A stretch of 64,000 nucleotides of DNA from Deltaproteobacteria bacterium (GCA_016183175.1 JACPFC010000026.1:41907-105906), one strand, 5' to 3'; shown: positions 10,038 through 46,411, numbered from the stretch's first letter. Numbers and translations are program-made. Notes: a model not told the origin generated them from the sequence alone.

Positions 10038-10793
10038 TTAATACCAGATCCTTCCCGCGCCCGAATCGATCCGGTTGTTGAGGGCGTTGATCTCCGGATG
10101 GGAGCGAAGATACGCGATAATCTTTTCTATGGAGACGGGCTTGTCGGGATTCAGCCGGAGATCTTCGTACACCCTGCGTAAAACGATCAGATCCTCGGGC
10201 CAGTCAACGGTCAGACGCACGTCCCCGCTTCGGACCTCCTCCGGGACACCCTGTTTTTTTATCTTGAACTGGTCGGGGTGTTCATGAATGTATGAAGTGC
10301 AAAACTCACTCCGGTGCCTCTTTTCCCCCAGCTCCCAGCTTTTCTTCAGGGCATCGTAACGGATAATTTCGTAGTAGGCCCCATCGGGGACTCCCAAAAT
10401 GACGGAATGGTCGAGGCCGTTGTCGCAATGATGCCGGTAGACCTCCTCAAGGTTATCGAGGTAGCAATACGGACTCTCCGTTGTCACACGGAACACCTGG
10501 TCGGCTTGCACCGATTCCGCGCCCCGTAACAGCCGGCCAAGGGCATCATGATCATCCCCGATGACAAAGGGAATCTCGTGGCGACGCGCGACTGTCCGAT
10601 AGACGGCATTTTCTTCCTTCTCGGAAATGGCCAGGACAATGCCTGAAAGGATGGGGATCTGCTTCAATTGACGGATCAGGAAATCGAGAATGGTCAGGCC
10701 CGTTTTGACATCCAGGGTTTGAAGCGGTTTCGCATACAGGCGAAGCGATTGATTGCGGCACGCCAGGACCGCCGCCATTTTTCCGGCTTTCAT
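10038..10793 (-). CDS. Acylneuraminate cytidylyltransferase family (CMP-nonulosonic acid synthetase, PseF/SpsF-like)
   Basis: 251 aa. N-terminal MAAVLACRNQSLRLYAKPL resembles the CTP_transf_3 P-loop-like segment. Confidence 0.65.
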   Translation of the reverse strand: MKAGKMAAVLACRNQSLRLYAKPLQTLDVKTGLTILDFLIRQLKQIPILSGIVLAISEKEENAVYRTVARRHEIPFVIGDDHDALGRLLRGAESVQADQVFRVTTESPYCYLDNLEEVYRHHCDNGLDHSVILGVPDGAYYEIIRYDALKKSWELGEKRHRSEFCTSYIHEHPDQFKIKKQGVPEEVRSGDVRLTVDWPEDLIVLRRVYEDLRLNPDKPVSIEKIIAYLRSHPEINALNNRIDSGAGRIWY

Positions 10794-15181: not shown

Positions 15182-15778
15182 TCACCGGGTGTAAAATTCT
15201 CTCACGAACTCGATGTCCGGGGGCGCGAACGGGTGGATCCTTTCCGGGTGCCACATGAGTCCTTGAATGGGTCTCGTTTTATGCCGAACCGCCTTGACGA
15301 CTCCGTCAGGGGCCGCCGCCCATACATCCAAAACATCGGTTGTTTCAGTCGTCCCCATCCTGTGGTAGCTGGGAACTTCCCGCTCGGTTCCGTTCACGGT
15401 GATCTTGAGTGTTGGTGTTATGTGGCCCTCAACCTGGGTCAACCGGATTCCAAAGAAATGCTGGATCAGTTGCATTCCTCTGCAAATGCCGAGAAGCGGC
15501 AGATTCCTGTCCAACGCATGCTTGAGGAGAAACAGCTCGGTTTCGTCGCGCTCCGGGGCATCCCCCCCATAGTCAAGAAGGTTATTTCCACCCGTCAACA
15601 GGATTCCATGACAGGCGATCGATCGTACGAGCGACTCGGCCGATCTCACATGATTGGGAATGGGATAAGGAGTGAATCCGCATTGTAAAAGGAAGGCGAT
15701 CCATCGCTGATCCAGTTGATCGCGACGCTCCCTGTTCTCCGAGGTTCCCACGCGCTGGGTGACGCCGATGAACCTCAT
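15182..15778 (-). CDS. Class I glutamine amidotransferase (peptidase C26 / gamma-glutamyl hydrolase family)
   Basis: 198 aa with the GICRGMQL nucleophile elbow and a downstream WHPE histidine motif. Confidence 0.75.
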   Translation of the reverse strand: MRFIGVTQRVGTSENRERRDQLDQRWIAFLLQCGFTPYPIPNHVRSAESLVRSIACHGILLTGGNNLLDYGGDAPERDETELFLLKHALDRNLPLLGICRGMQLIQHFFGIRLTQVEGHITPTLKITVNGTEREVPSYHRMGTTETTDVLDVWAAAPDGVVKAVRHKTRPIQGLMWHPERIHPFAPPDIEFVREFYTR

Positions 15779-18132
15779 CGGATGACGGATACCCTCTTGT
15801 CGGAACAGTCGATATCAAGCATCTCGGCCTTTGCCCATCTTGAATAGAAAATTTCCCCGGCGCCGATCACCGCCGGAACGCCAAGTTCACCCGCCCGGAC
15901 AGCCATGTGGGAGTTGGCCCCGCCGTACATCGTAATCAACGCGGCGATGCGACGGGAGAAAACCCAGTCATAGCCCGGGTCCGCGCTCGGTATCATGAGA
16001 ATACTGCCGACGAGTTTTTGGCGGTTCTCATGGTGGACGTGGGCCACCGGGCCTCTGGCCTTTTGGAGGGTGATAAAATTCGGCGCGCTCTCGGGCAGGT
16101 GGAAATGCCATACATCCTCCGGTTTCGTAATCAGGGGGGGCAGGGACAGGCTTCTTGTGAGCGAATAATTTTCCTGTCCCGAGGCGATGCTTTTCTTCAA
16201 AACCGACGCGGCATCCGCGCTCGACGAATAAAGCTCCTTGATGCAGTTGATATCCGCGTAGGAGCATTGTTCAGGGCTGAATCCGTTTTCATTCCCCAGT
16301 TCCCTGAATAATTTGAGGATCTCGCTGACGTTGACGGTAAAGATAAATTTGGCATATTCCCTTGCCGCGACGGCCTTGCCGATGAAATCATAAAGCTCAT
16401 GGGCATCCAGTTGCAACGGGTGATGTTTCAGAAGTTTGCCGGTTTGCCGCAGTTGATCCGGAGACGGAATAAATCGGCGATTTTCCCGGCGGTTCTTTTT
16501 TGGGGAGGGGGCCCATGTGAAGTACTGATCGGGTTCCTCGTCGTACCGGGGGGACAGAATGTCGTAGGTCCCGGGCCTCAAGTGGCCGTATTTTTTTAAA
16601 AAGGTCTTGCGGCTTAAATATTGAAAGTCCTGATTCATCTGTGAGCCGATCGTATTCAAACTTCTTGTAAAGAGGTCATATTCGGACCGGTTAAGGATGC
16701 CGACACGCTGTAACGATTGAAGAAGTTGCACGGCAATGAATCCGGTGCGCGCCAAACCGGCGAAGGGAAGGGTTCCGTACCGCTTGCAATCTTCCAGGAG
16801 CCAGTAGATTTTCGAGACATTGTTCTGCGGGCTTTGCATGATGACGGAATGGCGCTTTTGAAGATCATTTATCTTCTCCAGGTCCTCATGCCATAGCCCG
16901 TCTTCGCCGTGAATAATTCTGTTGGTGAGCGCGCCAAGACTTTTTTCCAAACGGGCGCAATCCGGTTTGCTGAAGCCGTTTTTCCGGAGCTCTTCGGAAC
17001 GGGCGGTGAAATCAAAGGTGTAGCACGTATAAAGAATTTCAAATTCGACCTTGTCATGGTCGGTCGGAGACTCCAGAAGAGACTTGAGGTAGTAATTCAC
17101 CAAACGCTCCGAGAGCTCGGCGTCAATATCCGCGGGAACGAATGAGTTGAAGTCAACGCGGACGTCGATGTAAGGGAATCCGTGAAAACTGATCAATAAA
17201 GGGAAGCTTCGGAGGCTTTTATAGCCGTAGTTATCCCTCTGGTAGGCCCAAATGCTGTCCGTGATCAGTTCTTTATAGAGGGACAGGGTCAGGGGACGAG
17301 GCCGAACGCCGATCATCTCGGCCGGATTCCAGTCGGGCATGACGCCATAAATGGTTTTTGAGCCGTGGAGGTATGGGTGCGGTTGCATGGATTCTTTTAT
17401 CTTGCGGTAAATCATCCCCAGGGCCTTTTCGTGCCTTTCCGTCGAGATGTCGGGTTTGGGAACACCCACGAGAGGACGGGCCTGCAGGAGATAGAGATGA
17501 CCTTCGGCGCCGACGGCAAATTCGATATCAAGAGAATCCGTTTCCAGGAGAGATTCCAGCTCCCAAACCAGTTTGACGATCCTGCCCCATTGAGGAGAAG
17601 GCGCTTTTCTGTGCTTGTAACAGTAAAACATCTTCAGGTTGTTTGATCCGCCTGAAGTGACCGTGGATGTCCCCCGGCCGGCATCATCGTAATTAACGAC
17701 GATGTAGGGTCCGCCGGTATTCGGATCCCTGCTGAAGGCCACTCCGCTTAAGGCGACATCCTGCAACATCGGTTGAAGGAACACCTGGTCCCCGTCGTTC
17801 CCGATGCCGTAAGATTGAATGACCTTTGAGATTGCCTTGCGGACCGCCCTCTCTCCGCTCACATCCTTTACAGAAAGATGGCGGCCGGCCATGGATTCCT
17901 TGAAAGAATCCTCAACATACGCACTGCTTCGCACAATCAATGGAATCTCATCCAGCCACCCGGCCTCCCGAATCCGGTGGATCATTCGGGATGGCGATTC
18001 CTCCCATTCTTTCACCGTCATCCGGATTTGAGGGAGAACCCTTGCCGACTTTAGGACCGCCTCGAGGCGTTCCAGCGTTTCCGCCTTGGTTCCAAAGCGA
18101 ACCGTCATTGAAGTTTTTTTTGGACAGTCCAC
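15775..18132 (-). CDS. PEP-utilizing enzyme (pyruvate,water dikinase-like): N-terminal ATP/PEP-binding domain plus phosphohistidine mobile domain, no TIM-barrel
   Basis: 785 aa. The C-terminus YGGANSHMAVRAGELGVPAVIGAG is the PEP-utilizing phosphohistidine motif. The N-terminal ~350 aa resemble the PPDK_N nucleotide-binding domain. Confidence 0.7.
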   Translation of the reverse strand: MDCPKKTSMTVRFGTKAETLERLEAVLKSARVLPQIRMTVKEWEESPSRMIHRIREAGWLDEIPLIVRSSAYVEDSFKESMAGRHLSVKDVSGERAVRKAISKVIQSYGIGNDGDQVFLQPMLQDVALSGVAFSRDPNTGGPYIVVNYDDAGRGTSTVTSGGSNNLKMFYCYKHRKAPSPQWGRIVKLVWELESLLETDSLDIEFAVGAEGHLYLLQARPLVGVPKPDISTERHEKALGMIYRKIKESMQPHPYLHGSKTIYGVMPDWNPAEMIGVRPRPLTLSLYKELITDSIWAYQRDNYGYKSLRSFPLLISFHGFPYIDVRVDFNSFVPADIDAELSERLVNYYLKSLLESPTDHDKVEFEILYTCYTFDFTARSEELRKNGFSKPDCARLEKSLGALTNRIIHGEDGLWHEDLEKINDLQKRHSVIMQSPQNNVSKIYWLLEDCKRYGTLPFAGLARTGFIAVQLLQSLQRVGILNRSEYDLFTRSLNTIGSQMNQDFQYLSRKTFLKKYGHLRPGTYDILSPRYDEEPDQYFTWAPSPKKNRRENRRFIPSPDQLRQTGKLLKHHPLQLDAHELYDFIGKAVAAREYAKFIFTVNVSEILKLFRELGNENGFSPEQCSYADINCIKELYSSSADAASVLKKSIASGQENYSLTRSLSLPPLITKPEDVWHFHLPESAPNFITLQKARGPVAHVHHENRQKLVGSILMIPSADPGYDWVFSRRIAALITMYGGANSHMAVRAGELGVPAVIGAGEIFYSRWAKAEMLDIDCSDKRVSVIR

Positions 18133-19432: not shown

Positions 19433-20346
19433 AGCGCGGGATTCAGGATCCGGTCGTCGACGGAACCGAAAACCATGTGGATCCGTTTTGGCAGGGAGGG
19501 GTCAACATCCCTTTTCCAACAGGAAATGTTTTGCTTCAGTTGGGACACGCTCTCCGCGCCGAAGACAACGGAAGCGCGAGGGGCCGCCGATTTGATATAG
19601 AGCAGGGCGAGTTCCGGGCGCTCCATCACCAGTTCACGGCAAACCGAATCGAGATTTTTCAAAATGGATTTTGCAAAGGCCATTTTCTCCGGCAACTCTT
19701 CCGGTTTCATGAGGAGGAGCCCCTGCAAAAAAATACTGCGGACATAGATGCCCTTCCCAAGCCTCTCCGCCAGGCCAAAAACTCCCTGGTCAAGAAAGCG
19801 GCGGTCGAAGAGGTTCATGGGAACCTGAACCAGATCGATCCCCTCTGTTTCAAGGGCTTGAAGGGCCCTCTCCGGCCGGTATACCGAGACCCCGATTTTC
19901 CGGACGACCTTTTCCTCCTTAAAACGAAGAAGGGTTTCTCCCAGGCCCCGGTTCCAGTGGTCGAGGAATTTCTCCCGGTGCAGGAGGATGCCGGAGAGTT
20001 GGGACAACCCGAGTCGTTCAAGGCTTTCGGAAAGGGCCTCTTTGAGGGCTTGTCCGTGAAGATGATTGAGTGAGGGATGAAATTTTGTAAAAACCCCAGC
20101 CTTTTGGGAAAGGCCCAGGGCTTTCAGGGCCTGCCCCAGAACCGTCTCGCTCGTTCCATAGTCCTGGGCCGTATCAAATTCCCGGATACCGTTCTCCCAG
20201 GCCTCTGCAACAATCTCCTCCGATTCCGACGGACCGGGTTGGCCCTTCCGGTTGGCGATTCCGTAAGGCATCCCGAGTTGCGCCGTGCCCAAAACAAGTC
20301 TCGTCGGACGGTCAGCCAACCCGCGAAATCCTTTCCGGCTGGACAA
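19417..20346 (-). CDS. Aldo/keto reductase family oxidoreductase
   Basis: 309 aa with an AKR TIM-barrel pattern (LVLGTAQLG...DTAQDYG...). Confidence 0.75.
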   Translation of the reverse strand: MSSRKGFRGLADRPTRLVLGTAQLGMPYGIANRKGQPGPSESEEIVAEAWENGIREFDTAQDYGTSETVLGQALKALGLSQKAGVFTKFHPSLNHLHGQALKEALSESLERLGLSQLSGILLHREKFLDHWNRGLGETLLRFKEEKVVRKIGVSVYRPERALQALETEGIDLVQVPMNLFDRRFLDQGVFGLAERLGKGIYVRSIFLQGLLLMKPEELPEKMAFAKSILKNLDSVCRELVMERPELALLYIKSAAPRASVVFGAESVSQLKQNISCWKRDVDPSLPKRIHMVFGSVDDRILNPALWPPH

Positions 20347-22525
20347 CCGATCGGATCGACTGAATCACCCTTTGAACGTCGCTGTCCAACATCGCGGGAA
20401 AGAGTGGAATCGAGAGGCACTGGTCGTAGTATTTTTCCGCATGGGGACAATCGCCCCGTTGGGTGCCGAACCGGTTCCTGAAGAGGGGCTGTGTATGGAC
20501 CGGGATGAAGTGGACCTGGGTTTTGACCCCCTTTTCTTCCAGTTGCGCCATCACGTCGGCCCGCGGCAGACCCCGTTTCTCGAAATCGATCAGGAGGACG
20601 TAAAGATGGAAGTTGTTTTGACAAAAGGCGGATTCGTAAGGCGTGATCGCCAGATCCAGTTTCTCAAAATGGGCGTTGTATTGGTCGACGATTTCACGCC
20701 TCCGCTTCATGAATCGGGGCAGTTTTCGGGCCTGGGAGATGCCGAGGGCGCACTGAATGTCCGTGATGCGGTAGTTGAAACCGAGTTCGACCTGTTCGTA
20801 ATACCAGGGAGGGATTGAGGCCTGAAAGTCGGACCTCAACTCCGGATTGACGAACTCGGCCGGATCGCTGGTCATGCCGTGGTTTCGCAATCGCTTGAGC
20901 CTCCGGTAGAGTTCCTCATCGTTGGTGAGAACGGCGCCTCCCTCGCCGGTGGTGATATGCTTGACGGGATGAAAACTCAAGACCGCCATATCCGAAAAGG
21001 AGCAGGAACCCACCTGCGTTCCCTTGTAGGTCGAGCCGAGGGCGTGGGCGGCGTCTTCAATGATGTATATTTTATGGCCAAACTTCTTCTCCGCCCGGTT
21101 TTTAATCCGTGTCATTGCCTCCATATCGCAACTCTGGCCGGCAAAATGCACGGGGATGACGGCCTTGACGCGCCCGGTTATTTTCATTTCCACGGTTTCC
21201 GGCGACAGATTATAGGTTCTCGGGTCGATATCGCCGAACACGGGTCTTGCCCCGCAATAGACAATGCAGTTTGCCGAGGCCACGAAGGTGTTGGGAGAGG
21301 TAATGACTTCGTCTCCGGGACCGATGTTGGCGGACAGACAGGCGATATGGAGGGCGGAGGTCCCCGAATTGACGGCCACCGCGAACTTTGAGCCGGTAAT
21401 CCGGCACAAGGCGTCCTCGAACTCGCCGACCTTTGGCCCCTGGGTCAAATAACTTGATTTCAGGACCGCGATGACGGAGCGGATATCGTCGTCGTCGATG
21501 CTTTGCCTCCCGTAAGGAGACATGGAACGCCTTGCGCTGTCGTCCGCGTAGGGTTTCCTCTTGATGATTTTTGGGAAGCCGCTTTTGTAATCCCCGTAAA
21601 ACTTCTCGATCGAATCATCGATGGTCGGCAGGGCGCAATCGAGCGCCTCTGCCAGCTTGCCGACGTTGAGGGTGAGGTCGGTTCCCCTCTTGGCGTCGAA
21701 GTTGAACTCTTCGATCGGCGTCGGCTCGACAAGAGACCGGTCCAGTCGAAACCGGTCGGCGAGCCTCACGGCGAATTCGTACTTCGAAATGCCGATGGGA
21801 CTCCCGCAATTGTAGATGCCGAGCAGGTCTTTCCGCGCCGCCAGTTCCAATACCCATGCCAGTTCCAGCGTGTAGATGGAAGAAAAGCGGGCATTGACAA
21901 AACCCTTGATCACTTGTCCCTCCTTAAGCCGATGGATAATCCATTCGGCGAGGCCTTCTTTTTCCTGAATGTTCCATCCAAAGATGTTTGTCCGGAAAAC
22001 GAGCGTATGGGGATGTTTAAGCGCTTCAAGCTCTCCTTCGTATTTGCTTTTCCCATAATAATTCGGAGGGCTGGGGGGGTCGGTCTCCGAGTAATCTCCC
22101 CTTTGACCGTCGTAAACGAGGTCGGTTGATATGTAGATGAGTTTTGCGTCGCAATCCTCAAGACTTTCGACAACGGCCTGCGTGCCCAGGATGTTCGTCT
22201 TTTTTGCAAGCTCCCGGTTCCTTTCGCACAAGTCGACATCCGCCAAAGAGGCGCAGTGAATGACGACATCGGGCTTAAAGCCCTTGACAACGGGCTTAAG
22301 GGAGTCCTGCGACAGGAGATCGACCCGTTGCGTTTCAACCCCGTCAATGGAAACGGGATGGGAACAATACAATCCGAGCAGGTCGAATTTCCCGCGAAAT
22401 GCGTGGGCGAGATTGCTCCCAAGCATGCCGCTTACGCCCGTAATGAGGATTTTTTCCCTATTGGGGAACGGCCTCGAGGCCCCAACGCGATTTTTCGATG
22501 GAATAGTCATCGGCGGTTTTTTCAA
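20312..22525 (-). CDS. Fusion: N-terminal RmlD-like NAD(P)-dependent sugar reductase/epimerase plus C-terminal DegT/DnrJ/EryC1/StrS aminotransferase (PseC-like)
   Basis: 737 aa. The N-terminus ILITGVSGMLG is a Rossmann fold (dTDP-4-dehydrorhamnose reductase-like). The C-terminal half has SGTSALHIA and SFHPVKHITTGEGG (PLP lysine) of sugar aminotransferases. Confidence 0.8.
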   Translation of the reverse strand: MKKPPMTIPSKNRVGASRPFPNREKILITGVSGMLGSNLAHAFRGKFDLLGLYCSHPVSIDGVETQRVDLLSQDSLKPVVKGFKPDVVIHCASLADVDLCERNRELAKKTNILGTQAVVESLEDCDAKLIYISTDLVYDGQRGDYSETDPPSPPNYYGKSKYEGELEALKHPHTLVFRTNIFGWNIQEKEGLAEWIIHRLKEGQVIKGFVNARFSSIYTLELAWVLELAARKDLLGIYNCGSPIGISKYEFAVRLADRFRLDRSLVEPTPIEEFNFDAKRGTDLTLNVGKLAEALDCALPTIDDSIEKFYGDYKSGFPKIIKRKPYADDSARRSMSPYGRQSIDDDDIRSVIAVLKSSYLTQGPKVGEFEDALCRITGSKFAVAVNSGTSALHIACLSANIGPGDEVITSPNTFVASANCIVYCGARPVFGDIDPRTYNLSPETVEMKITGRVKAVIPVHFAGQSCDMEAMTRIKNRAEKKFGHKIYIIEDAAHALGSTYKGTQVGSCSFSDMAVLSFHPVKHITTGEGGAVLTNDEELYRRLKRLRNHGMTSDPAEFVNPELRSDFQASIPPWYYEQVELGFNYRITDIQCALGISQARKLPRFMKRRREIVDQYNAHFEKLDLAITPYESAFCQNNFHLYVLLIDFEKRGLPRADVMAQLEEKGVKTQVHFIPVHTQPLFRNRFGTQRGDCPHAEKYYDQCLSIPLFPAMLDSDVQRVIQSIRSVVQPERISRVG

Positions 22526-24312: not shown

Positions 24313-25440
24313 GTGAGTGATACAGGGTACGAAGTGAATGTGCTTGACGGTTATCGGATTGTCCGAAAACGGATCCGGTTGATTGCCGCGGTGGTTTTCA
24401 TCACGACCTTTTCTTCGGTTGTCTGGAGTCTTGTTCTTCCCAAGATTTATCGGAGCGAGGCGCTGATCCTGGTTTCGGGCGGTTTATCGGGGGTGGGGGT
24501 CACCGAGCTCCTGGCTCTCCAGCTAAGCTTTGGCGGGGGCATGACGGGCGGAGGAGGCGCAGGGGGAAAACTGGTGGCGTTTTTTCACAGCCGGACGATG
24601 GCCGAAAGGATCATTACGCGGTTTGATCTTATGAAATATTATTATAAAGACGCCTGGGACGCGGAAAAAAACGATTGGAAGGCGGCGGATCCCGCCGACA
24701 AACCCTCCCTGCAGACGGCGGTCGTCAGTTTCAAACAATCGGCATCCTTCTCGGAAGACAGGAAAAAGGGGACGGTCAAGATCAGCGTGGAGTTTACCGA
24801 TCCCGTATTGGCTACCCAGGTGGCCAACGGCATCGTGGATGAACTGCAACGATTCGTCGATGAAAGCGAATTCACCGAGTCCAAAAGAAAGCGGGTTTTC
24901 ATCGGCAATCAGCTTTTGGCCAACCGGCGCGAACTTCTTGAGGCGGGAAAGGAACTTTCCGAATACTACCAGCGGAACCGGATATCGGCAACCCTGGCGC
25001 AGGTGGATGTGCCCCTGGAATTCTCCGAAACGGAGCGGAACATACCCACGCGCCTGGCGTCCTCTTCCGATGCGGTCATCCCGGAACAGATTCGGAATTT
25101 GCAGGAGACCGTGAAAAAGATGGATGCCGCGGCGCCAAAGGGGGAGGTGGTCCACGGAATTCCCCAGCAGGTGTATCTGGAGTATGTGGTCCAAAAGAGG
25201 GAAATTCTCAAGGTTCTGGCCGGCCTGCTTTCCCAGCAGTATGAGATGTCCAAGATTGAAGAGGCGAGGGAAAACATTTCTTTTGAGGTGCTGGATAAGG
25301 CGCTGGTTCCCGAAAAAAGGGTGAAGCCCCAGCGGCGCCGTATCGTGATGACCGCTTTTGTCTTCAGTATTTTTGCGGCCCTGTTTCTTGCCTTTGTTCT
25401 GGAGTATTTTCAGAAAATTCGGCCCCGGCAGGAACGATAG
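24313..25440 (+). CDS. Polysaccharide chain-length determinant protein (Wzz/PCP family, no kinase domain)
   Basis: 375 aa. N-terminal TM (LIAAVVFITTFSSVVWSLVL) plus C-terminal TM (IVMTAFVFSIFAALFLAFVL) with a coiled periplasmic region. Confidence 0.75.
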   Translation: MSDTGYEVNVLDGYRIVRKRIRLIAAVVFITTFSSVVWSLVLPKIYRSEALILVSGGLSGVGVTELLALQLSFGGGMTGGGGAGGKLVAFFHSRTMAERIITRFDLMKYYYKDAWDAEKNDWKAADPADKPSLQTAVVSFKQSASFSEDRKKGTVKISVEFTDPVLATQVANGIVDELQRFVDESEFTESKRKRVFIGNQLLANRRELLEAGKELSEYYQRNRISATLAQVDVPLEFSETERNIPTRLASSSDAVIPEQIRNLQETVKKMDAAAPKGEVVHGIPQQVYLEYVVQKREILKVLAGLLSQQYEMSKIEEARENISFEVLDKALVPEKRVKPQRRRIVMTAFVFSIFAALFLAFVLEYFQKIRPRQER

Positions 25441-25443: not shown

Positions 25444-26583
25444 ATGCGGGGCAAAGGGAAAATGTTTAATCAGCGGAACAATATTGTCATCGCCTGTCTC
25501 TTCGGTTGCCTGTTGTTGATGCCTTTTTCCGCCTTTTCCCAGGAAGGCTTCGGTCAGGCCCTGGGCGTCCGAAAATCGCTTTCAGGCACGGCAGACAGTA
25601 AAGGCAGGGAAGTGCGGAGTTTTGGTTCGCAAAATCAGACCGTCGAGGTGGAGTCGAGTTCTATTCCGTTCAGCGCCCTGAATCCGGCGGGATCGGGAAC
25701 CGAAAGCCCTGTTTTTTACAATGTTCATGTCCTGGGAGAAGTCGGTCGTCCGGGCGTTTATAAAATCAGGCCTTCCGATCGGGTTACCGACGCCCTTCAA
25801 TATGCGGGGGGGCAGTTGCCGAACGGCTCGACACGCCGCCTGCAATTAAGGCGGGAAGGGTCGACAAGAATTCTCGATCTTTTTGCCTACAAATACAACG
25901 GCCTGCTCGACAATAATCCTTATCTGATGGAAAACGATGTGATCTTTGTGCCGGTCAAGAAGGGGGAAATTCAGGTTGAGGGACCGGTCAACCGCCCCGG
26001 AAATTACGAAATAACCCGCCCCATTTCTCTTGCAAAAGCCGTTGCGATGGCGGGGGGTTTTTCGGTCGGCCTTTCCGCAAAGACCCCGATCCGCATTGTC
26101 CGTTTCAACGGCGAGGAAAAAAAGGAGATTATCGAAGTGGAAAACAGCAGGGACGAAATGGCGGGATTTGAGGTCAAAAAGGGGGACGCCATCGTCGTTC
26201 CCCATATTTTGATCGCCGACAAGGAATTCGACTACAATTTGAAACGCATTCCCGGAGACAACATTTTTTATCCGACAATCGATGACAATGTCTATGTGAT
26301 CGGGGCGGTGTCCTTGCCCGGCGCCTACGAATTCAAGCCGCACTATACCTATAAAGAATATGTCAGTCTCGCGGGGCCGGTGCGGGATGCAAAAATGAGA
26401 AGCATCCGGCTGATCCGGAGCAATGGGAAAAAACTGCGCGTCAGGAAAAGCACCACAATTAATGCGGGCGATACCCTTGTTGTCCCCCAGCGTTACTGGA
26501 AACCGGAGGTAGTTGCCGGTTGGCTGGGAACCGTCACGAATCTTACTCTTTCCACGCTTGTCATTACCGACCGTTTTAAATAA
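25444..26583 (+). CDS. Polysaccharide export outer-membrane protein (Wza-like; Poly_export + SLBB domains)
   Basis: 379 aa. Signal peptide; the VHVLGEVGRPGVYKI and IGAVSLPGAYEF SLBB motifs. Confidence 0.8.
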   Translation: MRGKGKMFNQRNNIVIACLFGCLLLMPFSAFSQEGFGQALGVRKSLSGTADSKGREVRSFGSQNQTVEVESSSIPFSALNPAGSGTESPVFYNVHVLGEVGRPGVYKIRPSDRVTDALQYAGGQLPNGSTRRLQLRREGSTRILDLFAYKYNGLLDNNPYLMENDVIFVPVKKGEIQVEGPVNRPGNYEITRPISLAKAVAMAGGFSVGLSAKTPIRIVRFNGEEKKEIIEVENSRDEMAGFEVKKGDAIVVPHILIADKEFDYNLKRIPGDNIFYPTIDDNVYVIGAVSLPGAYEFKPHYTYKEYVSLAGPVRDAKMRSIRLIRSNGKKLRVRKSTTINAGDTLVVPQRYWKPEVVAGWLGTVTNLTLSTLVITDRFK

Positions 26584-26599
26584 GCGGATTATTTTTGCT

Positions 26600-29281
26600 T
26601 TAAAATTCGCGGCCCAGGATAAGATAGGCCGCTCCTGCATCGGAGCCGCCGCTGTCTTCGGCAGGAGCCCCCGCCAAAAAATCATCGATGGCATCACCGT
26701 CGACATCCCCCGCGGGAGCCACGGATCCGGCGGCATCCGAGGCCGCTTCTCCCGTGAATTTGACTTCTGCGTCGGAGAGATCCGTTGTGCCGGTCGCCGG
26801 GCCGTAGATGAGGTAGACGGCGCCGGCGTCGGCGGCAGACCCGTCATTTGACGGGGCCCCCACCAGAATATCCGGCGTGCCGTCGTCATTCGGATCGCCG
26901 GCGGAAGAAACAAAGGTGCCGGCGCTGTCCCCCGTGTTTTCACCCGTGAATCTTGCGTTGGCGCCTGAAAGAGAAAGGGAACCGCTTAAAGGGCCCAGGA
27001 CAAGATAGGCGGCCCCCGCACCACTGCTTTCTCCGGAGGCCCCCACAAGCATGTCATCATAGCCGTCGCCGTTATGATCGCCGGCGGGGGCGACAGATGT
27101 GCCGGCATAAGCATTGTCCTCCACCCCTTCCATTTGACCGTCGGCGGCAGAAAGGTCAACGGCGCCGGAAACAGGGCCATCGATCAGATAGGCCATCCCT
27201 GCCGCCAAACCGGCCGAATCGTTCCCGATGGCGCCGATTAAAATATCGCCGGTTCCATCGCCGTATACATCTCCCGCCGATGCGACCGCCCATCCGGCCG
27301 AATCAGAGGCGTCTTCCCCCAGCAATATCGCCTCCGCCCCGGAGAGGTTCCGGGTTCCACTGACGGGGCCGTGGACCAGGTAGGCCGCGCCGGCAGTGAT
27401 GCCTCCCGCATCATTGTAGATGGCTCCCACGAGCACATCATCATTGCCGTCCCCATCCATATCCCCGGCGGAGGAGGTGGAATACCCTGCCAGATCGCCA
27501 CCTGCCTCGCCGATAAGCTTTGCCCCCCCGGAAGAAAGATCGGCAGTCCCTGTGAGAGGACCATAGACGATATATGCGGCGCCGGCGTCGGAGCCGCCGC
27601 CATCCTCCTGATAGGCGCCGACGATAAGGTCGACATTTCCGTCCCCATCCACATCCCCGGCGGAGGAGACGGCATAACCGGCCATATCGCCATCCGCCTC
27701 GCCCAGAAGTTTGGCGCCGGCGGTCGAAAGGTCCACCGAGCCGCTGACGGGTCCGTAGACGACATAAACGGCGCCGGCCCCCGTTGCGGCGGAACTTTCG
27801 CCGTATGCACCCACCAGGATATCGTCAAATCCATCGGCGTCAAAATCGCCGGCCGGGGCCAGGGACCGTCCTGCATCGTTGTCGTCGGTTTCTCCAATCA
27901 ACTTGGCGTCGGCGTCGGCAAGACTGTTTGTGGCGGGTTCACAACCATCGGATGTCCCGTCGCAATTGCTGTCCATGCCGTCGAAACAGGTATCGGTTGA
28001 CGCCGGATGAGTGGAACTGTCCCCGTCATCACAGTCATCATTTGTTGCGGCCACGCCGGCCGGAGGGTCGCAATAATCAACCGCACTGGCGGTTTCGTCT
28101 CCGTAGCCGTCGCCGTCGATATCGGTGTAATAAGAGCTTTTTCCCGTTGCTGAAGAATCATCGTCATCGGCCAGGCCGTCGCAGTCTTCGTCGGTGTCGG
28201 AGGCATCACAGATCTCCGTGGCCGAGGGGTTAATCGAAGAATCGCTGTCGTCGCAGTCGGTGTTTGTTGCGGCATAGCCGCTTCCCGGATCGTCACAAAA
28301 CAGAGTGCCTGTTGTGTCCGACTCATCGCCGTATCCGTCCCCATCGCTGTCGGCATACCATGTGCCCTGGCCCGTAACGGATGAGTCGTCATCGTCGGTT
28401 GCGCCGTCGCAGTCGTTGTCGATGGTGTCACAGATTTCCGTGGCCACAGGATTAATGGCCGAATTGGCATCATCACAATCATCGTTCGTTGTCGAGACGC
28501 CGGAAGAGGGAGGGTCGCAGTAGTCGGTTCCTGTTGCATCGTTCGTGTCACCATATCCATCGTTGTCGGCATCGGTGTACCGGGTGACCTTGCCTTCAGC
28601 TCCATCCGGATCGGCATCATCAGCATATCCGTTGCAGTTTTCGTCAACGTCGTCGGGGTCGCACTCTTCGAAGGCAGAGGGATTAATGGATGGATCGGTG
28701 TCGTTACAATCCCCCTCGCAGGAGGCCAGACCATCCCCATCGCCATCGTCGATGTCGGCGATGTCGTCACAGTTTCTGTCTTCGGTGTCACACTCGGTGG
28801 GAGCGCCGGGGTAGTAATCGGCGGCGGAATCGTTGCAGTCGTCGTTGGTCGCGGCATAGCCGCTTTCCGGATCGTCACAAAACAGAGTGCCTGTTGTGTC
28901 CAACTCATCGCCGTATCCGTCCCCATCGCTGTCGGCGTACCAAGTGGTTGCATCGGTTACATTGTCGTCTTCGTCGTCAATCAGGGAGTTGCAGTCGTTG
29001 TCGATTTCATCGCAGACTTCGGCGGCCGAGGGGTTGGTGGCGGCATCGGCGTCATTGCAATCATCGCCGTTGTCCGCATATCCGGCCGTTCCGGCGCAGA
29101 CGCTTGCCAGAAGGTCGCTTGCGCCGTAGCCATCTCCGTCATCATCTACGAAGGCATCTATGGTGCCGCCAATTTTTGGATCGTTGGGATCACAGTCGTC
29201 ACTGTCCCAGTAGCCGTCTTCGTCGGCATCGTTGGCCTTGTAGCCGCAGGCGGACAACAAATATAAAAGAAGCGGGTTCAT
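26600..29281 (-). CDS. Giant acidic lipoprotein: 7 MopE-like Cys-rich 'putative metal-binding' repeats followed by ~8 FG-GAP (integrin-alpha beta-propeller) repeats
   Basis: 893 aa. Lipobox LLSAC at the N-terminus. Repeated DCDDxDxxINPxAxExCDxxDNDCDG units and WYADSDGDGYGDE motifs. C-terminal repeated D.DGDG..D..VGA...GAAY..GP units. The underlying DNA is highly repetitive. Confidence 0.8.
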   Translation of the reverse strand: MNPLLLYLLSACGYKANDADEDGYWDSDDCDPNDPKIGGTIDAFVDDDGDGYGASDLLASVCAGTAGYADNGDDCNDADAATNPSAAEVCDEIDNDCNSLIDDEDDNVTDATTWYADSDGDGYGDELDTTGTLFCDDPESGYAATNDDCNDSAADYYPGAPTECDTEDRNCDDIADIDDGDGDGLASCEGDCNDTDPSINPSAFEECDPDDVDENCNGYADDADPDGAEGKVTRYTDADNDGYGDTNDATGTDYCDPPSSGVSTTNDDCDDANSAINPVATEICDTIDNDCDGATDDDDSSVTGQGTWYADSDGDGYGDESDTTGTLFCDDPGSGYAATNTDCDDSDSSINPSATEICDASDTDEDCDGLADDDDSSATGKSSYYTDIDGDGYGDETASAVDYCDPPAGVAATNDDCDDGDSSTHPASTDTCFDGMDSNCDGTSDGCEPATNSLADADAKLIGETDDNDAGRSLAPAGDFDADGFDDILVGAYGESSAATGAGAVYVVYGPVSGSVDLSTAGAKLLGEADGDMAGYAVSSAGDVDGDGNVDLIVGAYQEDGGGSDAGAAYIVYGPLTGTADLSSGGAKLIGEAGGDLAGYSTSSAGDMDGDGNDDVLVGAIYNDAGGITAGAAYLVHGPVSGTRNLSGAEAILLGEDASDSAGWAVASAGDVYGDGTGDILIGAIGNDSAGLAAGMAYLIDGPVSGAVDLSAADGQMEGVEDNAYAGTSVAPAGDHNGDGYDDMLVGASGESSGAGAAYLVLGPLSGSLSLSGANARFTGENTGDSAGTFVSSAGDPNDDGTPDILVGAPSNDGSAADAGAVYLIYGPATGTTDLSDAEVKFTGEAASDAAGSVAPAGDVDGDAIDDFLAGAPAEDSGGSDAGAAYLILGREF

Positions 29282-29282
29282 A

Positions 29283-30593
29283 TTAAAAAGTGACTCCCAG
29301 TCCCAATTGATATGAGTTCACGGCAAAGGGGGCTCCGGAGGTCCATTCGGGATTCTCCGCGACTTCCCCTTCAATCCCAATCACGGCATGCTGAACGCCG
29401 AGCTCCAAAAATACCGACCTGTCCGAGGGGGATTTTTTTTCGATCAAAAACGAGGCCCCCAAAACCGGCGTCTGAATAATAGAGAGGTTTTTAAGTTCAA
29501 CGTCCGCGCTCCCGACGCCGATTCGCTGGTCGGCCGGCGCGCCAAACGGGGAATCAAAGTTGGCGCCGTGGCCTAAAGAGATTCCGGCGCCAAAGACCGC
29601 CGGCTTTGTCCGGAAAAGGGCATGGAGCCTTAAACTCCCCTGCAGATAAGAATTGTCCAGGGCGTACGGGACATCTTCCGTTCCCTGCTGGGTTGTGACG
29701 CCGTAGCCAAGCCGTCCCCCCGCTCGGAGACCCAGCTTCCGCGTCAACAACGTTTCGGCAAACGCGCCGGCGAAGAGAGACAGATCTCCCCCTCTCATGA
29801 CATAAGAGGGGCCGTAGGTGGGAGATGTTGTCCGGCCTCCTCCCATGAGGCCAAGTTCACCATGAATCTGCTGTTTTGCTTTTGTCAAAGGAGGAGCTGT
29901 TGCCGCCGCTTCCTTCCGGCCGTTGGTTTTGCCGAGTTTTACTTCCTGATAATTTTCAGAGCCGTTCTTTTCAATCGACTGGAACGTCCAGGTCCGCTGA
30001 TCTTCCGCGGAGAGAGAAGGCGCCCCTTCCGCGATGGGGACGAACCGGTAATCGATTTCCACAACAGGCAGAAGCCCTTTAAACGATCCTGTTGCCTTGA
30101 GTTGGGCATCGGCGGACTCGATGCTTTTTCTTTGATCGGGAGCTATAGGCATTGCGGAAGGGACAAGGGAGTAAGACGATCCCGCGGGGGAAGTGATGTC
30201 GACACAACCATACTCTCTTTCGATATAGGCGATGTCCCCCTCCACTTCGGTTTTTACGGAGCCGATCGGATTGCTCTGAAGGGCCAGTTGTTCCCTCCGG
30301 TAGAAGGCAAGGGAATCGCCGCGTTCCCTGGCCGCCAAGGCCCCCCAGTGGTGGACCTCCGCATCAATGGGGACATTCAGCGCGAGGATGTCTTGATAAT
30401 TGTCCTCGACGCCGTCCCATTTGCCTGTCCGCACCAGTTTTTTAACTTCTTCCTTGAGACGGACATATTCGGCCCCTTTCCTGGTGGGCCTCTCCTTTTC
30501 CTCTGGAGCCATGGCGATGCCGTCATCTTCCAGCAAATACCAAGGTTCCGTGGCAGAGGGAGCGGTTAATGGCGGTAAATAAGGGGTGTCCAT
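29283..30593 (-). CDS. Hypothetical protein (possible beta-barrel/outer-membrane-like C-terminus), co-transcribed with the lipoprotein
   Basis: 436 aa. A 1-nt gap to the downstream lipoprotein gene. The Gly/aromatic-rich C-terminal half ends ...LGLGVTF. No family recognised. Confidence 0.4.
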   Translation of the reverse strand: MDTPYLPPLTAPSATEPWYLLEDDGIAMAPEEKERPTRKGAEYVRLKEEVKKLVRTGKWDGVEDNYQDILALNVPIDAEVHHWGALAARERGDSLAFYRREQLALQSNPIGSVKTEVEGDIAYIEREYGCVDITSPAGSSYSLVPSAMPIAPDQRKSIESADAQLKATGSFKGLLPVVEIDYRFVPIAEGAPSLSAEDQRTWTFQSIEKNGSENYQEVKLGKTNGRKEAAATAPPLTKAKQQIHGELGLMGGGRTTSPTYGPSYVMRGGDLSLFAGAFAETLLTRKLGLRAGGRLGYGVTTQQGTEDVPYALDNSYLQGSLRLHALFRTKPAVFGAGISLGHGANFDSPFGAPADQRIGVGSADVELKNLSIIQTPVLGASFLIEKKSPSDRSVFLELGVQHAVIGIEGEVAENPEWTSGAPFAVNSYQLGLGVTF

Positions 30594-30665
30594 AGGTATT
30601 CAACGGTTGTTATCGGCTGATTCTTAAAAAAGTTGCGTTAATAATTATAAAAACAAAAATAATTA

Positions 30666-31055
30666 TTAAGAAAGGGTTTGAAGCCAGTTGGCCTTCAGGA
30701 GATTCATGTCCATGGTAGCCAGGGGGATATCGTAGACAAGGGATGTGGCCGCCAAAAAGCGGTCGGCGGGGTCCTGGTGGGGGAGATCGACCTCGCGGCT
30801 TTTAATGGCGACCTCGGTGTTTAGGGGGGCCTCATGCAGAGGCGCTTGTTCCAGGCACCTGCGCACCCACCTGACCGGGTCGGTATTAACGCCAAATTTC
30901 CCCTTTTGGATCAAAATGATTGTTTCCCAAATTGAAATGGGGGAAAGCCAGAGATCTTCGGTGTGATGATCGAGGGTGTTACGCAAGGAGGCCGGCATGT
31001 TTGGAGAGGTCGACACATACCAAAGCCAGATATGCGTATCGAGGAGAATTTTCAT
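30666..31055 (-). CDS. vapC: Type II toxin VapC (PIN domain)
   Basis: N-terminus MKILLDTHIWLWY is a typical PIN/VapC. The start at Met7 of ORF 30666..31073 abuts the antitoxin stop. Confidence 0.8.
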   Translation of the reverse strand: MKILLDTHIWLWYVSTSPNMPASLRNTLDHHTEDLWLSPISIWETIILIQKGKFGVNTDPVRWVRRCLEQAPLHEAPLNTEVAIKSREVDLPHQDPADRFLAATSLVYDIPLATMDMNLLKANWLQTLS

Positions 31056-31291
31056 TCCTTGAATACTTCCCAATCATCTGTTCCCAAAGGGCTGACAATA
31101 TCGCCAATGAATGTGACACTATCTTTCATGCACCCGTACGAGGATCTCTTGACAGGAGGTTTTGGAGGAGGGGCGACCATGGCAATCGGAACCCCCTTTT
31201 TTGTGACAACCAAAGACTCTCCCGTATTCTTCACTCGTTCCAATAACTTAAGGCATGTAGCCTTAAATTGAGAGATCGCAATGGTTTCCAT
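31052..31291 (-). CDS. Type II antitoxin, Phd/YefM family
   Basis: 79 aa, ISQFKATCLKLLERVKNTGESLVVTKKGVPIAMV, directly upstream of vapC. Confidence 0.75.
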   Translation of the reverse strand: METIAISQFKATCLKLLERVKNTGESLVVTKKGVPIAMVAPPPKPPVKRSSYGCMKDSVTFIGDIVSPLGTDDWEVFKE

Positions 31292-31333: not shown

Positions 31334-31840
31334 TCATGCGACCTTCAGTTTTTCCACCTCTGTCCAATGTACCGTGGCGTGCATTTCGTAGTTGATCAGT
31401 TTCAAAAGGACCTGCACCCGCCCACAGGCGGGAACCGGTTTTTCGATGATTCCGATCAGTTCTTTAAGCATCCCTTTCCGCACCCGAATCCGGTCGCCCC
31501 TCTTTAAAAATGTCTGCCGTTCGATGATCCCGTTGTCATTGGCGTGGGAGCGGATGGTCTGGATAATCTCATCCGACATCGGGACCGGCCTGTTTTCGAA
31601 CGTGATCACTTTGTTGACGCCGCGCGTGTATTTGACGAGATGGAAATTCCGGTCCTCGCCGAAGTCGGTGTGAACGAACAGATAAGAGGGGAAGAGGGGG
31701 GCGGTCCGGAAAAAGGAGGTTGTCGACCGGTACATCAGGTCTTTGATGACGGGATAAAAAGTTTCAAATCCCCCCTGTTTGAGGAGTCGGCAGACATCGT
31801 TTTCGCGCCGGGGTTTGGCCTGGACGACATACCATTTCAT
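31334..31840 (-). CDS. NusG-family transcription antiterminator paralogue (RfaH/UpxY/LoaP-like)
   Basis: 168 aa. NGN domain KWYVVQAKPRRENDVCRLLKQGGFETFYP...PLFPSYLFV and C-terminal KOW (GDRIRVRKGMLKELIGII). Confidence 0.75.
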   Translation of the reverse strand: MKWYVVQAKPRRENDVCRLLKQGGFETFYPVIKDLMYRSTTSFFRTAPLFPSYLFVHTDFGEDRNFHLVKYTRGVNKVITFENRPVPMSDEIIQTIRSHANDNGIIERQTFLKRGDRIRVRKGMLKELIGIIEKPVPACGRVQVLLKLINYEMHATVHWTEVEKLKVA

Positions 31841-41467: not shown

Positions 41468-42607
41468 ATGGTTAAGCGCGATGTTTATTTCATGTCCCGG
41501 TGCCTCCAGTTGGCCCAAAAGGCCGCTGGACACACATCCCCCAATCCTTTGGTCGGCGCTGTCATCGTCAAAAATGGCAAACTCCTCGCCGGAGGCTACC
41601 ACCACAAAGCGGGTCTGCCTCACGCCGAGATTGAAGCCCTGAAAAAAATCAGCTTTAGGGCGGAAGGCGCTACCCTCTATTGCAACCTCGAACCCTGTTT
41701 TCACCACGGCCGGACGCCGCCGTGCGTTCATCCGATTATTAAGAGCGGCATCAAACGGGTGGTGATCGCCCACCGCGACCCGAATCCGCTGGTTGCTGGA
41801 AGATCGGTCCGCCTCCTTAAAAAATCGGGGATTCAGGTCACCGAAGGGGTTTTGGAAAAAGAGGCGCGGCATTTGAACCGGTTTTTTCTGACTTGGGTGA
41901 CAAAGAAAAGGCCGTATGTGATTTTGAAGGCAGGGGTGAGCCTCGATGGAAAAATTGCAGGAGGGAAAAAATGGATCACCAGTCCCCCCTCCCGCCGCCG
42001 TGTCCATCAACTCCGTTCCCAAGTTGACGCTATTCTGGTCGGCGCACACACAATCAGAACCGACAACCCGCGTTTAAACGTTCGGGGAATCAAGGGAGCG
42101 AAACAGCCCTTAAGGATTATCTTAGGGAGTAGGCGTCAGATTCCTGTAAATGCAAGAATTTTTGCGGGGATCCAGCCATGTCCCCCTGAAAATCTGGATT
42201 CCCGCTTGCGCGGGAATGACAGATTGATGTTTTTTAGAGGTGCCCTACCGACCCTTATGCGAAAACTGGCCCGGCGAAACGTAACCTCGATTCTGGTAGA
42301 AGGGGGGGCCAAGGTTTTTGCCTCGTTTATCAAAAATAGCCTTTGCGACGAGCTCATCCTCTTTATCGCCCCGAAAATTTTGGGACCAAGTGCCCTTGAT
42401 GTCTTTCCGCCATCACTGCTGAAAAAATTTCCATTTAAGATTTCCTCAATAACCCCTTCCGGCCCAGACTTGGAGGTTCGGTTTGGGACAAAGAAAAAAG
42501 GGGCTATTGCCAAGGCCTGCCAAAATGCCAATAAGGATGCGAAAACCAATCGGTTGATCCGGGAGTGGCAGGGTTTTGACGAAAAAGCGGATGGTGAATG
42601 GAAATGA
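41468..42607 (+). CDS. ribD: Bifunctional riboflavin biosynthesis deaminase/reductase RibD
   Basis: CMP/dCMP deaminase zinc motif HAEIEAL...NLEPCFHHGRTPPC plus a C-terminal RibD reductase domain. The 3' end or an alternative start may differ slightly. Confidence 0.85.
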   Translation: MVKRDVYFMSRCLQLAQKAAGHTSPNPLVGAVIVKNGKLLAGGYHHKAGLPHAEIEALKKISFRAEGATLYCNLEPCFHHGRTPPCVHPIIKSGIKRVVIAHRDPNPLVAGRSVRLLKKSGIQVTEGVLEKEARHLNRFFLTWVTKKRPYVILKAGVSLDGKIAGGKKWITSPPSRRRVHQLRSQVDAILVGAHTIRTDNPRLNVRGIKGAKQPLRIILGSRRQIPVNARIFAGIQPCPPENLDSRLRGNDRLMFFRGALPTLMRKLARRNVTSILVEGGAKVFASFIKNSLCDELILFIAPKILGPSALDVFPPSLLKKFPFKISSITPSGPDLEVRFGTKKKGAIAKACQNANKDAKTNRLIREWQGFDEKADGEWK

Positions 42608-42773
42608 CCGGAAAATTTCCAAGACGGGGAGATATCCGGGGACATTGTCAGCTCGTAAGGTTTACTTTCCATAAAATTTATTAATTAAAAAACCGCGCAA
42701 CTTTTTCGGCGTTGCGCCGATAATCGGATTAAATCCCTGGCAGGTTGCCGTTTTTTGATTTAGGGCACAAACA

Positions 42774-45619: not shown

Positions 45620-46411
45620 ATGGGAGACACACGACCCCCTGTTATTTATTTTGATCCCGTGGACAAGAATCTCTTTGAAGAATGCGGGGCCATTTTTCCA
45701 AGCGATCAGAAACCGGGGACGCTCAAACCGGATAATTTCGATGTCACGAATCTTCGTCCGGAACTGCGGAAGCTGTACGCGGGGGAAAATCCTTATTCTT
45801 TTTTTGTGCAGGAATTCCGAACGGGAGGGGGTCACGTCAGCCGGGAACGGATGGAGGAGCTGGCCCCAATCTGCCGCGATCCCGAGGCCTACCTCGATGG
45901 AAAGAAAGGGTTCCCATGCTACTGGTTAGAAGAAAAAACCGGTTTTCCGGGGTGGGTCTGCGAGGCAGGCGCTTGGACGGTGGGAGGGGCGGTGGTCGCC
46001 GAAGGGGTGCGAAGAGGGATCAAATATGTCCGCCAAAAGCCCGGTGGCGGGGATCCTCCCACGGAACCGCCGGCCGGTTCGGCTCCGGCGGGAGAACCGG
46101 CTCCTGCGGGTGCTCCTCAAGGAGATGGGCCAGCCGTGGTCCCTCCCGAGGCGCCGCCGGTTGAGGGGGATCAACAGGCCGAATGGTCGGTTCCTTCCAT
46201 CGACTGGGCGACCGCCGGCTACATCGCGCTCGGCACGGGGCTTGCTGTGGGGGCGGTGGTGCTTTTTTGCATCCCTTTTGACGGTCCATTTGGCGAGGGG
46301 GCGGCGGGGGCCGGATCGATCGCCAGCTTTACCGCCGCCGCGGCGCGGCTGGGACTTTTTTCCTCCCCGATGACGGCCCCTGTGTTGGCCTACGCCCGTA
46401 CCCTGCGATAA
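45620..46411 (+). CDS. Hypothetical protein (263 aa), Pro-rich linker plus C-terminal transmembrane helix; translationally coupled to the 947-aa gene
   Basis: GGAGG Shine-Dalgarno sequence and ATG 2 nt after the upstream stop. C-terminal AGYIALGTGLAVGAVVLFCIPF TM segment. Confidence 0.55.
   Translation: MGDTRPPVIYFDPVDKNLFEECGAIFPSDQKPGTLKPDNFDVTNLRPELRKLYAGENPYSFFVQEFRTGGGHVSRERMEELAPICRDPEAYLDGKKGFPCYWLEEKTGFPGWVCEAGAWTVGGAVVAEGVRRGIKYVRQKPGGGDPPTEPPAGSAPAGEPAPAGAPQGDGPAVVPPEAPPVEGDQQAEWSVPSIDWATAGYIALGTGLAVGAVVLFCIPFDGPFGEGAAGAGSIASFTAAAARLGLFSSPMTAPVLAYARTLR

Follow-up and report, generated by a model that had tools for sequence, protein, structure and literature searches.

A conserved gene pair encoding a MopE-repeat/FG-GAP lipoprotein and a predicted small outer-membrane barrel protein in a polysaccharide-export locus

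Background

Why does the gene for an extremely acidic lipoprotein lie a single nucleotide behind a gene whose product has no Pfam, NCBIfam or PDB sequence match, and what might the two proteins do together? The question is raised by a 64,000-nt stretch of DNA from a Deltaproteobacteria bacterium (GCA_016183175.1, JACPFC010000026.1:41907-105906), which we call the window and whose coordinates are used throughout. The original prediction for this locus described an acidic lipoprotein of 893 amino acids (aa), built of MopE-type repeats followed by an FG-GAP propeller, and suggested that the 436-aa protein encoded just upstream could be its secretion or anchoring partner. Here we report that the pairing of these genes is conserved in independent contigs and that the 436-aa protein joins a TPR-like domain to a predicted eight-stranded outer-membrane barrel, and we suggest that the pair is a cell-envelope module in which one protein anchors the other. 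Both open reading frames (ORFs) are real and lie on the minus strand, with the predicted 1-nt gap between them (TAA-t-ATG, in the context …ACT TTT TAA t ATG AAC…):

29283..30593, minus strand: 436-aa partner gene (NCBI HYU99_03325, 'hypothetical protein')
26600..29281, minus strand: 893-aa acidic lipoprotein gene (NCBI 'MAG: FG-GAP repeat protein [Deltaproteobacteria bacterium]')

The lipoprotein: a predicted stalk and propeller

The 893-aa protein begins with MNPLLLYLLSAC and has a pI of 4.05, with 171 Asp and 34 Glu residues (D+E 23%) and only 14 Lys and Arg (1.6%). Three parts can be distinguished along the chain:

29246..29281, minus strand: short lipoprotein signal peptide MNPLLLYLLSA-C, lipobox L-S-A-C at Cys12, n-region without a basic residue
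27941..29200, minus strand: six MopE-type Cys/Asp-rich modules of ~74 aa each, residues ~28-447, from Pfam PF11617 and a listing of the modules
26603..27919, minus strand: seven FG-GAP blades of 61-64 aa each, residues 455-893, from Pfam and a blade alignment

The predicted architecture is thus borne out by the LLSAC lipobox, which was read directly, and by Pfam matches well above the gathering scores: PF11617 ('Cu-binding_MopE') at E 2.1e-42 and 143.4 bits (cut-off 27), and FG-GAP (PF01839) at E 2.4e-21 and 75.6 bits (cut-off 22.1), each in six stretches, with FG-GAP_2 and FG-GAP_3 matching too. The repeat counts need revision. Where seven MopE-type repeats had been counted there are six clear modules and a degenerate partial copy near residue 30, and the approximately eight FG-GAP repeats are seven blades.

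The modules follow the pattern YxDxDGDGYGD...C...DC(D/N)Dx3-8(I)NPxAxExCDxxDxDCDG. All 26 cysteines past that of the lipobox fall in this region, which we call the stalk, and none in the propeller; they are enough for 13 disulfides, although how they would pair can only be guessed from the sequence. Every one of the seven blades carries a DxDxDGxxD loop of the Ca2+ type, and a PDB sequence search returned only the propellers of integrins alpha-V, alpha-IIb, alpha-5 and alpha-4 (E down to 3e-11), so that the FG-GAP region is predicted to be an integrin-alpha-like seven-bladed propeller.

Such proteins are common. A word-index search with the 893-aa sequence gave 6,814 proteins at E<=1e-10 among 8,000 scored, and dozens of homologues with the PF11617 plus PF01839/PF13517 architecture are 35-50% identical over 90-100% of the query; where named, they are called 'FG-GAP repeat protein', 'MopE-related protein' or 'putative metal-binding motif-containing protein'. 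Nearly all named homologues belong to Myxococcota or to 'Deltaproteobacteria' metagenome-assembled genomes (MAGs), in keeping with the predicted myxobacterial or deltaproteobacterial character of the architecture. A lipobox-like motif, called by regular expression, is found in 95 of the 120 nearest homologues. Elsewhere the same stalk bears other heads (C-type lectin, fibrinogen_C, LTD, Kelch), which suggests, from domain content, a modular design of stalk plus binding head. A full-text literature search found no functional study of the MopE-repeat/FG-GAP class; the 893-aa protein is a new member of this known, uncharacterised class, and an ordinary one. Paralogous expansion of the class is illustrated by a marine contig (L124) in which two such genes lie tail to tail (5001-7832, plus strand; 7900-10038, minus strand) near trypsin-like and CotH genes.

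The DNA of the gene had been described as highly repetitive, a view that does not hold at the nucleotide level. Tandem Repeats Finder detected no array within 26000-31000, and copies of the direct repeats reach just 60-75% identity. The one closer match is a 117-nt pair at 92%, around which the protein segments are identical at 43 of 60 residues:

28248..28364, no strand assigned: first copy of the 117-nt repeat
28830..28946, no strand assigned: second copy, 582 nt (194 codons, in frame) from the first

The partner: a TPR-like domain joined to a predicted outer-membrane barrel

Structure prediction with AlphaFold2 (AF2) was useless from the single 436-aa sequence, with a predicted local distance difference test score (pLDDT) of 39, and reached a pLDDT of 81.7 with an alignment of 80 sequences. 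In the latter model residues 1-37 are disordered (pLDDT ~50) and are followed by three ordered parts:

30213..30482, minus strand: five helices forming a TPR-like domain, residues 38-127, from the AF2 model
29934..30212, minus strand: small alpha/beta subdomain, residues 128-220, with the motif P-x-A-P-D-Q-R...G-x-F-K-G-L-L-P, from the AF2 model and the alignment
29286..29867, minus strand: eight long antiparallel strands, residues 243-436, forming a barrel of the OmpA/NspA/OmpX type that ends ...LGLGVTF

The last of these parts has, in the model, the features by which an outer-membrane barrel is recognised: eight antiparallel strands, a lipid-facing hydrophobic surface produced by alternating (amphipathic) hydrophobic faces, and an aromatic residue, Phe, at the C-terminus. 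Foldseek searches with the model placed outer-membrane barrels alone at the top (Ail, OmpX, NspA, OmpA and porins). We therefore predict that the C-terminal domain is an eight-stranded outer-membrane barrel, and the model gives substance to what had been read from the LGLGVTF ending as the outer-membrane-protein-like C-terminus of a beta-barrel-like protein.

The TPR-like helices and the alpha/beta subdomain together constitute the family-conserved part (hereafter the N-domain). Word-index searches with the 436-aa protein gave only 2 and 12 matches, and an exhaustive HMMER (phmmer) search was used instead; it returned 458 cluster representatives at E<=1e-3, of which 132 reached E<=1e-10 (1e-10 to 1e-60). 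Across the family the region of homology spans query residues ~30-185. The N-domain, of ~150 aa, has the signature E..R...W.GVE..Y...A...G...R...P.AP.....G.F.GLLP, which is present in the 436-aa protein, and in the 80-sequence alignment L143, P149, P152, G173, L175, P176 and Y182 are nearly invariant. Some proteins consist of it by itself (~200 aa), others add a C-terminal extension (~400 aa), and in a third, larger kind it makes up the C-terminus. The barrel is detectably common only to the window's protein and P0003, P0004, P0005, P0006 and P0008. No Pfam match recurred among 80 family members. The family is uncurated and moderately new, and its coupling to propellers appears undescribed.

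The pairing is conserved

If the two genes belong together, relatives of the partner should be followed by relatives of the lipoprotein, and this is what we find in all three nearest relatives with readable downstream DNA (the contig of P0008 ends at the gene). P0003 (L001) is followed after 1 nt by a lipoprotein gene (MSLLPLLLAACGYKAPEND...) with MopE repeats by Pfam; P0006 (L002/L003) after 18 nt by one (MTLPLLLLSLGLTGCALKYD...) with six MopE repeats by Pfam; and P0004 (L004) after 9 nt by one (MDLLLLLASCALNYKPNDGDGDG...) represented by an 85-residue fragment in which a MopE-like CNDxxxxxNP motif is visible by eye. This variation in spacing (1, 9 and 18 nt) led us to reject the idea that the pair is a single fused gene expressed by frameshifting or readthrough.

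A wider sample of 112 family loci, retrieved from GTDB genomes with a custom pattern, came almost entirely from Myxococcota-type MAGs, and a single genome often has several of them. In two distant Myxococcota loci (L079 and L034) the stop codon of the family member overlaps the start codon of a lipoprotein gene, with six MopE repeats in one and four MopE repeats plus FG-GAP in the other. Twenty-four members of ~400 aa or more are followed by a ~360-aa protein that has a signal peptide and repeats of the PD40 propeller type (Pfam PD40 E 3e-24), and P0153 (L006) shows this PD40 pairing too. Fourteen members, mostly of the N-domain-only form (~210-290 aa), precede proteins of ~220-250 aa that have a signal peptide, a 'GPYMWGVGP' start and no Pfam match (L013, L019, L033, L043, L053, L055, L057, L061, L067, L071, L078, L081, L091, L113). 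These 'MWGVG' proteins may represent a barrel encoded on its own; a jackhmmer search did not connect them with the fused C-terminal domains. One N-domain-only member (L125) precedes a protein with OMP_b-brl, TSP_3 and OmpA domains. Taken across loci, the partner types indicate that the N-domain occurs time and again with an outer-membrane barrel, either fused to it or encoded by a neighbouring gene, and with a protein that is a propeller or carries acidic Ca-type repeats. A search of metagenome contigs with the family alignment gave nothing, and a custom pattern gave two loci there, one of which (L126) has no family member among its ORFs.

Conserved adjacency in independent contigs thus upholds the partner half of the predicted 'secretion or anchoring partner'. 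Between its two options we favour anchoring over secretion, since an eight-stranded barrel is too small to serve as a channel.

Two further features of these loci deserve mention. In four Myxococcota loci (L014, L059, L094, L101) the family member is followed by a protein of ~570-610 aa that starts with a Ser/Thr-kinase-type motif, YxLLERLGxGGMSEV, a hint that some of the family may be tied to signalling. The partner lipoproteins of L001, L002, L004, L034, L079 and the related locus L122 all have a lipobox, and several of the signal peptides are very short and free of basic residues (MNPLLLYLLSAC in the window, MSLLPLLLAAC at L001 1269-, MDLLLLLASC at L004 4398-, MSLLLLLAGC at L122 5001-), which is unusual for Sec/Lsp substrates.

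The surrounding polysaccharide-export locus

The pair lies where it had been placed, between glycan-export genes, here convergent Wzz and SLBB genes, and a NusG paralogue upstream on the same strand. Reading along the minus strand, one meets the genes for UDP-glucose dehydrogenase, the NusG paralogue, a Phd antitoxin and a PIN toxin, then the 436-aa and the 893-aa gene, and sugar-nucleotide enzymes are encoded beyond the Wzz and SLBB genes:

31334..31840, minus strand: NusG paralogue, 168 aa, upstream on the strand of the pair (Pfam NusG E 1.3e-18)
25444-26583, plus strand: SLBB polysaccharide-export protein (Pfam), convergent, its end 16 nt from the end of the 893-aa gene
24313-25440, plus strand: Wzz-type chain-length protein (Pfam), convergent on the pair

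A related organism shows the same outline. In L122 the order is NusG paralogue (visibly similar to the window's and in the same relative position), an AbiEii toxin-antitoxin-like insert, an upstream gene that overlaps the MopE/FG-GAP gene by one base, that gene itself, convergent SLBB and Wzz genes, and an ABC transporter with an epimerase. There are thus at least two instances in which a MopE/FG-GAP gene keeps its place in a polysaccharide-export locus. The L122 upstream gene (750 aa, no signal peptide) was considered as a further family member and rejected, as hhalign shows no homology; the synteny does not extend the family.

Window G+C is 51-59%; neither tRNA genes nor Rfam matches were found in it. 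A Phd/YefM-PIN toxin-antitoxin pair (30666-31291, minus strand) lies between the NusG paralogue and the 436-aa gene, a Phd/PIN pair adjoins the partner gene in L004 (1574-2317), and the AbiEii module of L122 (1605-2590) occupies the equivalent spot, so this intergenic position seems to attract toxin-antitoxin modules. The glycan cluster of the window also encodes a fused RmlD-like reductase/DegT aminotransferase (737 aa; 20312-22525, minus strand) and a 785-aa protein that combines the ATP-binding N-terminal region of PPDK with a PEP-utilizer mobile domain (15775-18132, minus strand), both of which are unusual accessories in a sugar-modification pathway.

A promoter-like element and a possible regulon

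A bipartite element, GCAACTTT-N13-CGATAA, stands just ahead of the pair and occurs three times in the window against 0.00 expected:

30610..30636, minus strand: 17-43 nt upstream of the start codon of the 436-aa gene
42697-42723, plus strand: upstream of a 947-aa ORF
48023-48049, plus strand: upstream of a 1516-aa ORF

Conserved in four loci, it is also found upstream of the partner gene in L004 (2521-2547) and of its equivalent in L122 (2648-2674), with a variant in L002/L003 and a further copy in L005 (4763-4789, minus strand). The element may be a promoter; its AAC-N16-CGA layout resembles that of extracytoplasmic-function (ECF) sigma promoters. A general consensus scan for promoters and terminators gave counts at shuffle expectation. 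Given a conserved element of this kind, the pair probably has its own promoter, and co-transcription of the two genes is likely. Direct control by the NusG paralogue is therefore not needed to explain expression of the pair; the predicted placement by a NusG-controlled region stands as to the presence of that paralogue upstream.

The three ORFs preceded by the element in the window (436, 947 and 1516 aa) all lack a signal peptide and a strong Pfam match. The ECF-like layout of the element suggests a small regulon. The two larger ones, with a 263-aa ORF between them (42774-45617, 45620-46411 and 48107-52657, plus strand; none with a signal peptide), lie between ribD (41468-42607) and ribE/ribBA (54220-56074). 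Pfam gave only a weak PlsC-type acyltransferase match, in the 1516-aa ORF, and several stretches of the 947-aa protein around residues 540-680 are hydrophobic. Further along the plus strand (57679-59253) are an ECF sigma factor (Sigma70_r2/r4, Sigma70_ECF; 57679-58296) and then a zf-HC2 anti-sigma protein with TPR repeats; this sigma factor is a candidate regulator of the element.

A proposed two-protein envelope module

We propose, with middling confidence, that the two genes constitute one cell-envelope module, probably expressed from its own promoter, in which the barrel protein docks and positions a Ca2+-dependent stalk-propeller lipoprotein that serves in polysaccharide or matrix binding or in adhesion. 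The 893-aa protein would be lipid-anchored, disulfide-rich and probably Ca2+-binding, its six MopE-type repeats acting as a stalk and the FG-GAP propeller as the likely ligand-binding head on top. The barrel of the 436-aa protein would sit in the outer membrane as an anchor rather than a pore, with the TPR-like and alpha/beta domain facing the periplasm, as in outer-membrane proteins that have a soluble N-terminal domain ahead of an even-stranded barrel. That domain may dock the lipoprotein and so hold it in position at the outer membrane. The pair would most likely bind or organise surface polysaccharide or matrix in a Ca2+-dependent manner, or serve in adhesion, because it lies inside a Wzz/SLBB export locus, as its counterpart does in the related genome.

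Several points weigh against this proposal. Calcium binding and a polysaccharide ligand are read only from motifs and gene neighbourhood. The barrel half of the model draws on only about six homologous sequences, and pLDDT falls below 50 in three loop regions. Most MopE/FG-GAP genes have no family member upstream, and neither do three close homologues: those of L122 (with the 750-aa gene), L124 (with an SdrD_B gene) and L123. The weightiest point is the last: neither the 436-aa protein nor its nearest relatives have a Sec or Tat signal, which leaves the barrel's route to the outer membrane unexplained.

Alternative explanations

The 436-aa protein could instead be an export helper of the Slam kind, a TPR and barrel protein that flips or translocates the neighbouring lipoprotein to the surface. 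Neisserial Slam delivers TbpB, fHbp and HpuA to the surface, ~52% of Slam genes neighbour lipoprotein genes (PMC5449769), and its barrel is a 14-stranded DUF560 domain (PMC5449769). The order of a TPR-like N-terminal domain, a C-terminal outer-membrane barrel and an adjoining lipoprotein gene is the same here, and a partner rich in disulfides and Ca-type sites fits an extracellular location. We nevertheless consider this explanation unlikely, as eight strands in place of 14 leave no lumen for an 88-kDa substrate, Pfam found neither DUF560 (PF04575) nor any other match in the 436-aa protein at E<=0.1, a signal peptide is missing, and the neighbours of many family members are PD40 propellers that are not lipidated.

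It is about equally doubtful that the 436-aa protein is not an outer-membrane protein here at all, being cytoplasmic or exported by a non-Sec path, with a barrel that is not inserted by Sec and the barrel-assembly machinery (BAM). The case for it lies in the N-terminus, MDTPYLPPLTAPSATEPWYLLEDDGIAMAPEEKERPTRKG:

30483..30593, minus strand: Pro-rich, non-hydrophobic leader MDTPYLPPLTAPSATEPWYLLEDDGIAMAPEE..., residues 1-37, with no Sec or Tat signal

The leader contains neither the basic nor the hydrophobic segment of a cleavable Sec signal, and its maximal Kyte-Doolittle hydropathy is 0.67, versus at least 1.9 in 129 of 157 family members. In-frame stops directly upstream of the ATG in five independent contigs (the window, L002, L003, L004 and L005) and the lack of a signal peptide in all nearest relatives point the same way, as do P0007 and P0010, which have no signal peptide and carry two N-domains but no barrel, and the two other large signal-peptide-less ORFs of the window that share the promoter-like element. 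On the other side, the structural matches are integral outer-membrane barrels, the strands are long and patterned with a hydrophobic side towards the lipid, and the last residue is Phe; the translationally coupled gene encodes a lipoprotein, which has to be exported; and those same 129 members (~82%) have a signal-peptide-like N-terminus, from which the family is judged to be mostly exported. As regards the cytoplasmic protein that the original prediction had held up as evidence to the contrary, the missing signal peptide and the upstream stops agree with it in part, but a barrel is predicted.

The leader itself may carry information. It has a 'PITP' motif, a 'DGIAD' motif or both in common with some of P0003 (PITP only), P0004, P0006 (DGIAD only) and P0016, and the unrelated upstream protein of L122 has a similar leader with 'ITP' and 'DGVADD'. 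It is conceivable, though we give the idea little weight, that the signal-peptide-less subgroup marks a lineage-specific non-Sec route or a regulon for envelope proteins. If so, the leader would be a new export or docking signal, in one version a short linear motif inserted in the propeller of the partner, and the three operons would be one co-regulated surface-remodelling system.

Improbable, and more so than either the export helper or the protein outside the outer membrane, is that the genes are mere neighbours without a functional link. The great abundance of MopE/FG-GAP paralogues and the lack of such an upstream gene in L123 and L124 would allow it. Against it, the genes adjoin at 1-18 nt in every readable locus of the subgroup (three plus the window) although the proteins are only 30-38% identical, and the pairing recurs with overlapping stop and start codons in the two distant Myxococcota loci.

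Least credible is a copper-acquisition protein like MopE or CorA of methanotrophs: the name of PF11617 invites that reading, but of MopE/CorA the Pfam family takes in just a small and unspecific part (PMC6189053), the 893-aa protein matches no MopE chain in the PDB by sequence at E<=0.01, the motif resembles the Asp/Cys-rich repeats of teneurin, with whose Cys-rich region it has been aligned (PMC3278476), and the window holds no methanotrophy or copper genes.

We accordingly rejected the 893-aa protein as a MopE/CorA homologue or copper binder. Behind the predicted MopE-type metal binding stands only the PF11617 motif of ~30 residues. This motif also resembles thrombospondin type 3 repeats, which bind Ca2+. 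By analogy with these and with DxDxDG loops, Ca2+ is the better guess than Cu.

Significance

The MopE-repeat/FG-GAP lipoproteins count among the surface-protein classes that have expanded most in Myxococcota-like bacteria. For a subset of them we show a conserved and translationally coupled partner whose family, so far uncatalogued, combines a TPR-like domain with a predicted small outer-membrane barrel. The wider family, of ~460 clusters, is regularly coupled to beta-propellers and merits a curated model. The pair offers a concrete candidate for a two-protein system that anchors and displays Ca2+-dependent, adhesin-like proteins in a polysaccharide-export locus, and the missing signal on a predicted outer-membrane barrel is a small but real puzzle of envelope targeting in this lineage.

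Comparison with known systems

The closest likeness of the 893-aa protein is to its own class in Myxococcota and related MAGs, with which it shares the domain order of lipobox, tandem MopE-type repeats and FG-GAP propeller; most of these proteins have 1,000-1,550 aa, whereas the window's is shorter, with fewer stalk repeats. With integrin alpha it shares seven FG-GAP blades and sequence matches in the Ca2+-binding blades. Integrin alpha propellers have a Ca2+ loop in three or four blades, as against all seven here, and the 893-aa protein has no thigh, calf, transmembrane part or beta subunit and is, by its lipobox, lipid-anchored.

The barrel of the 436-aa protein recalls the small eight-stranded barrels of NspA, OmpX/Ail, the OmpA N-domain, OmpW and PagL, to which it is only 8-17% identical in sequence and from which the protein differs in lacking a signal peptide; in OmpA, moreover, the soluble domain is C-terminal to the barrel and not N-terminal. 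To the Tol-Pal accessory set (TolB with its PD40 propeller, CpoB/YbgF with TPR) we found no sequence homology; the pair differs from it in a propeller that is lipidated and made of FG-GAP repeats and in a TPR-like domain that is fused to a barrel, and no tolQRA genes are nearby. Slam, in Neisseria and other Proteobacteria, has in common with the pair a TPR-like N-domain, an outer-membrane barrel and a lipoprotein neighbour, and stands apart in its 14 strands versus eight, in its DUF560 domain and signal peptide, neither of which the 436-aa protein has, and in its partners, which the 893-aa protein, not being TbpB-like, does not resemble.

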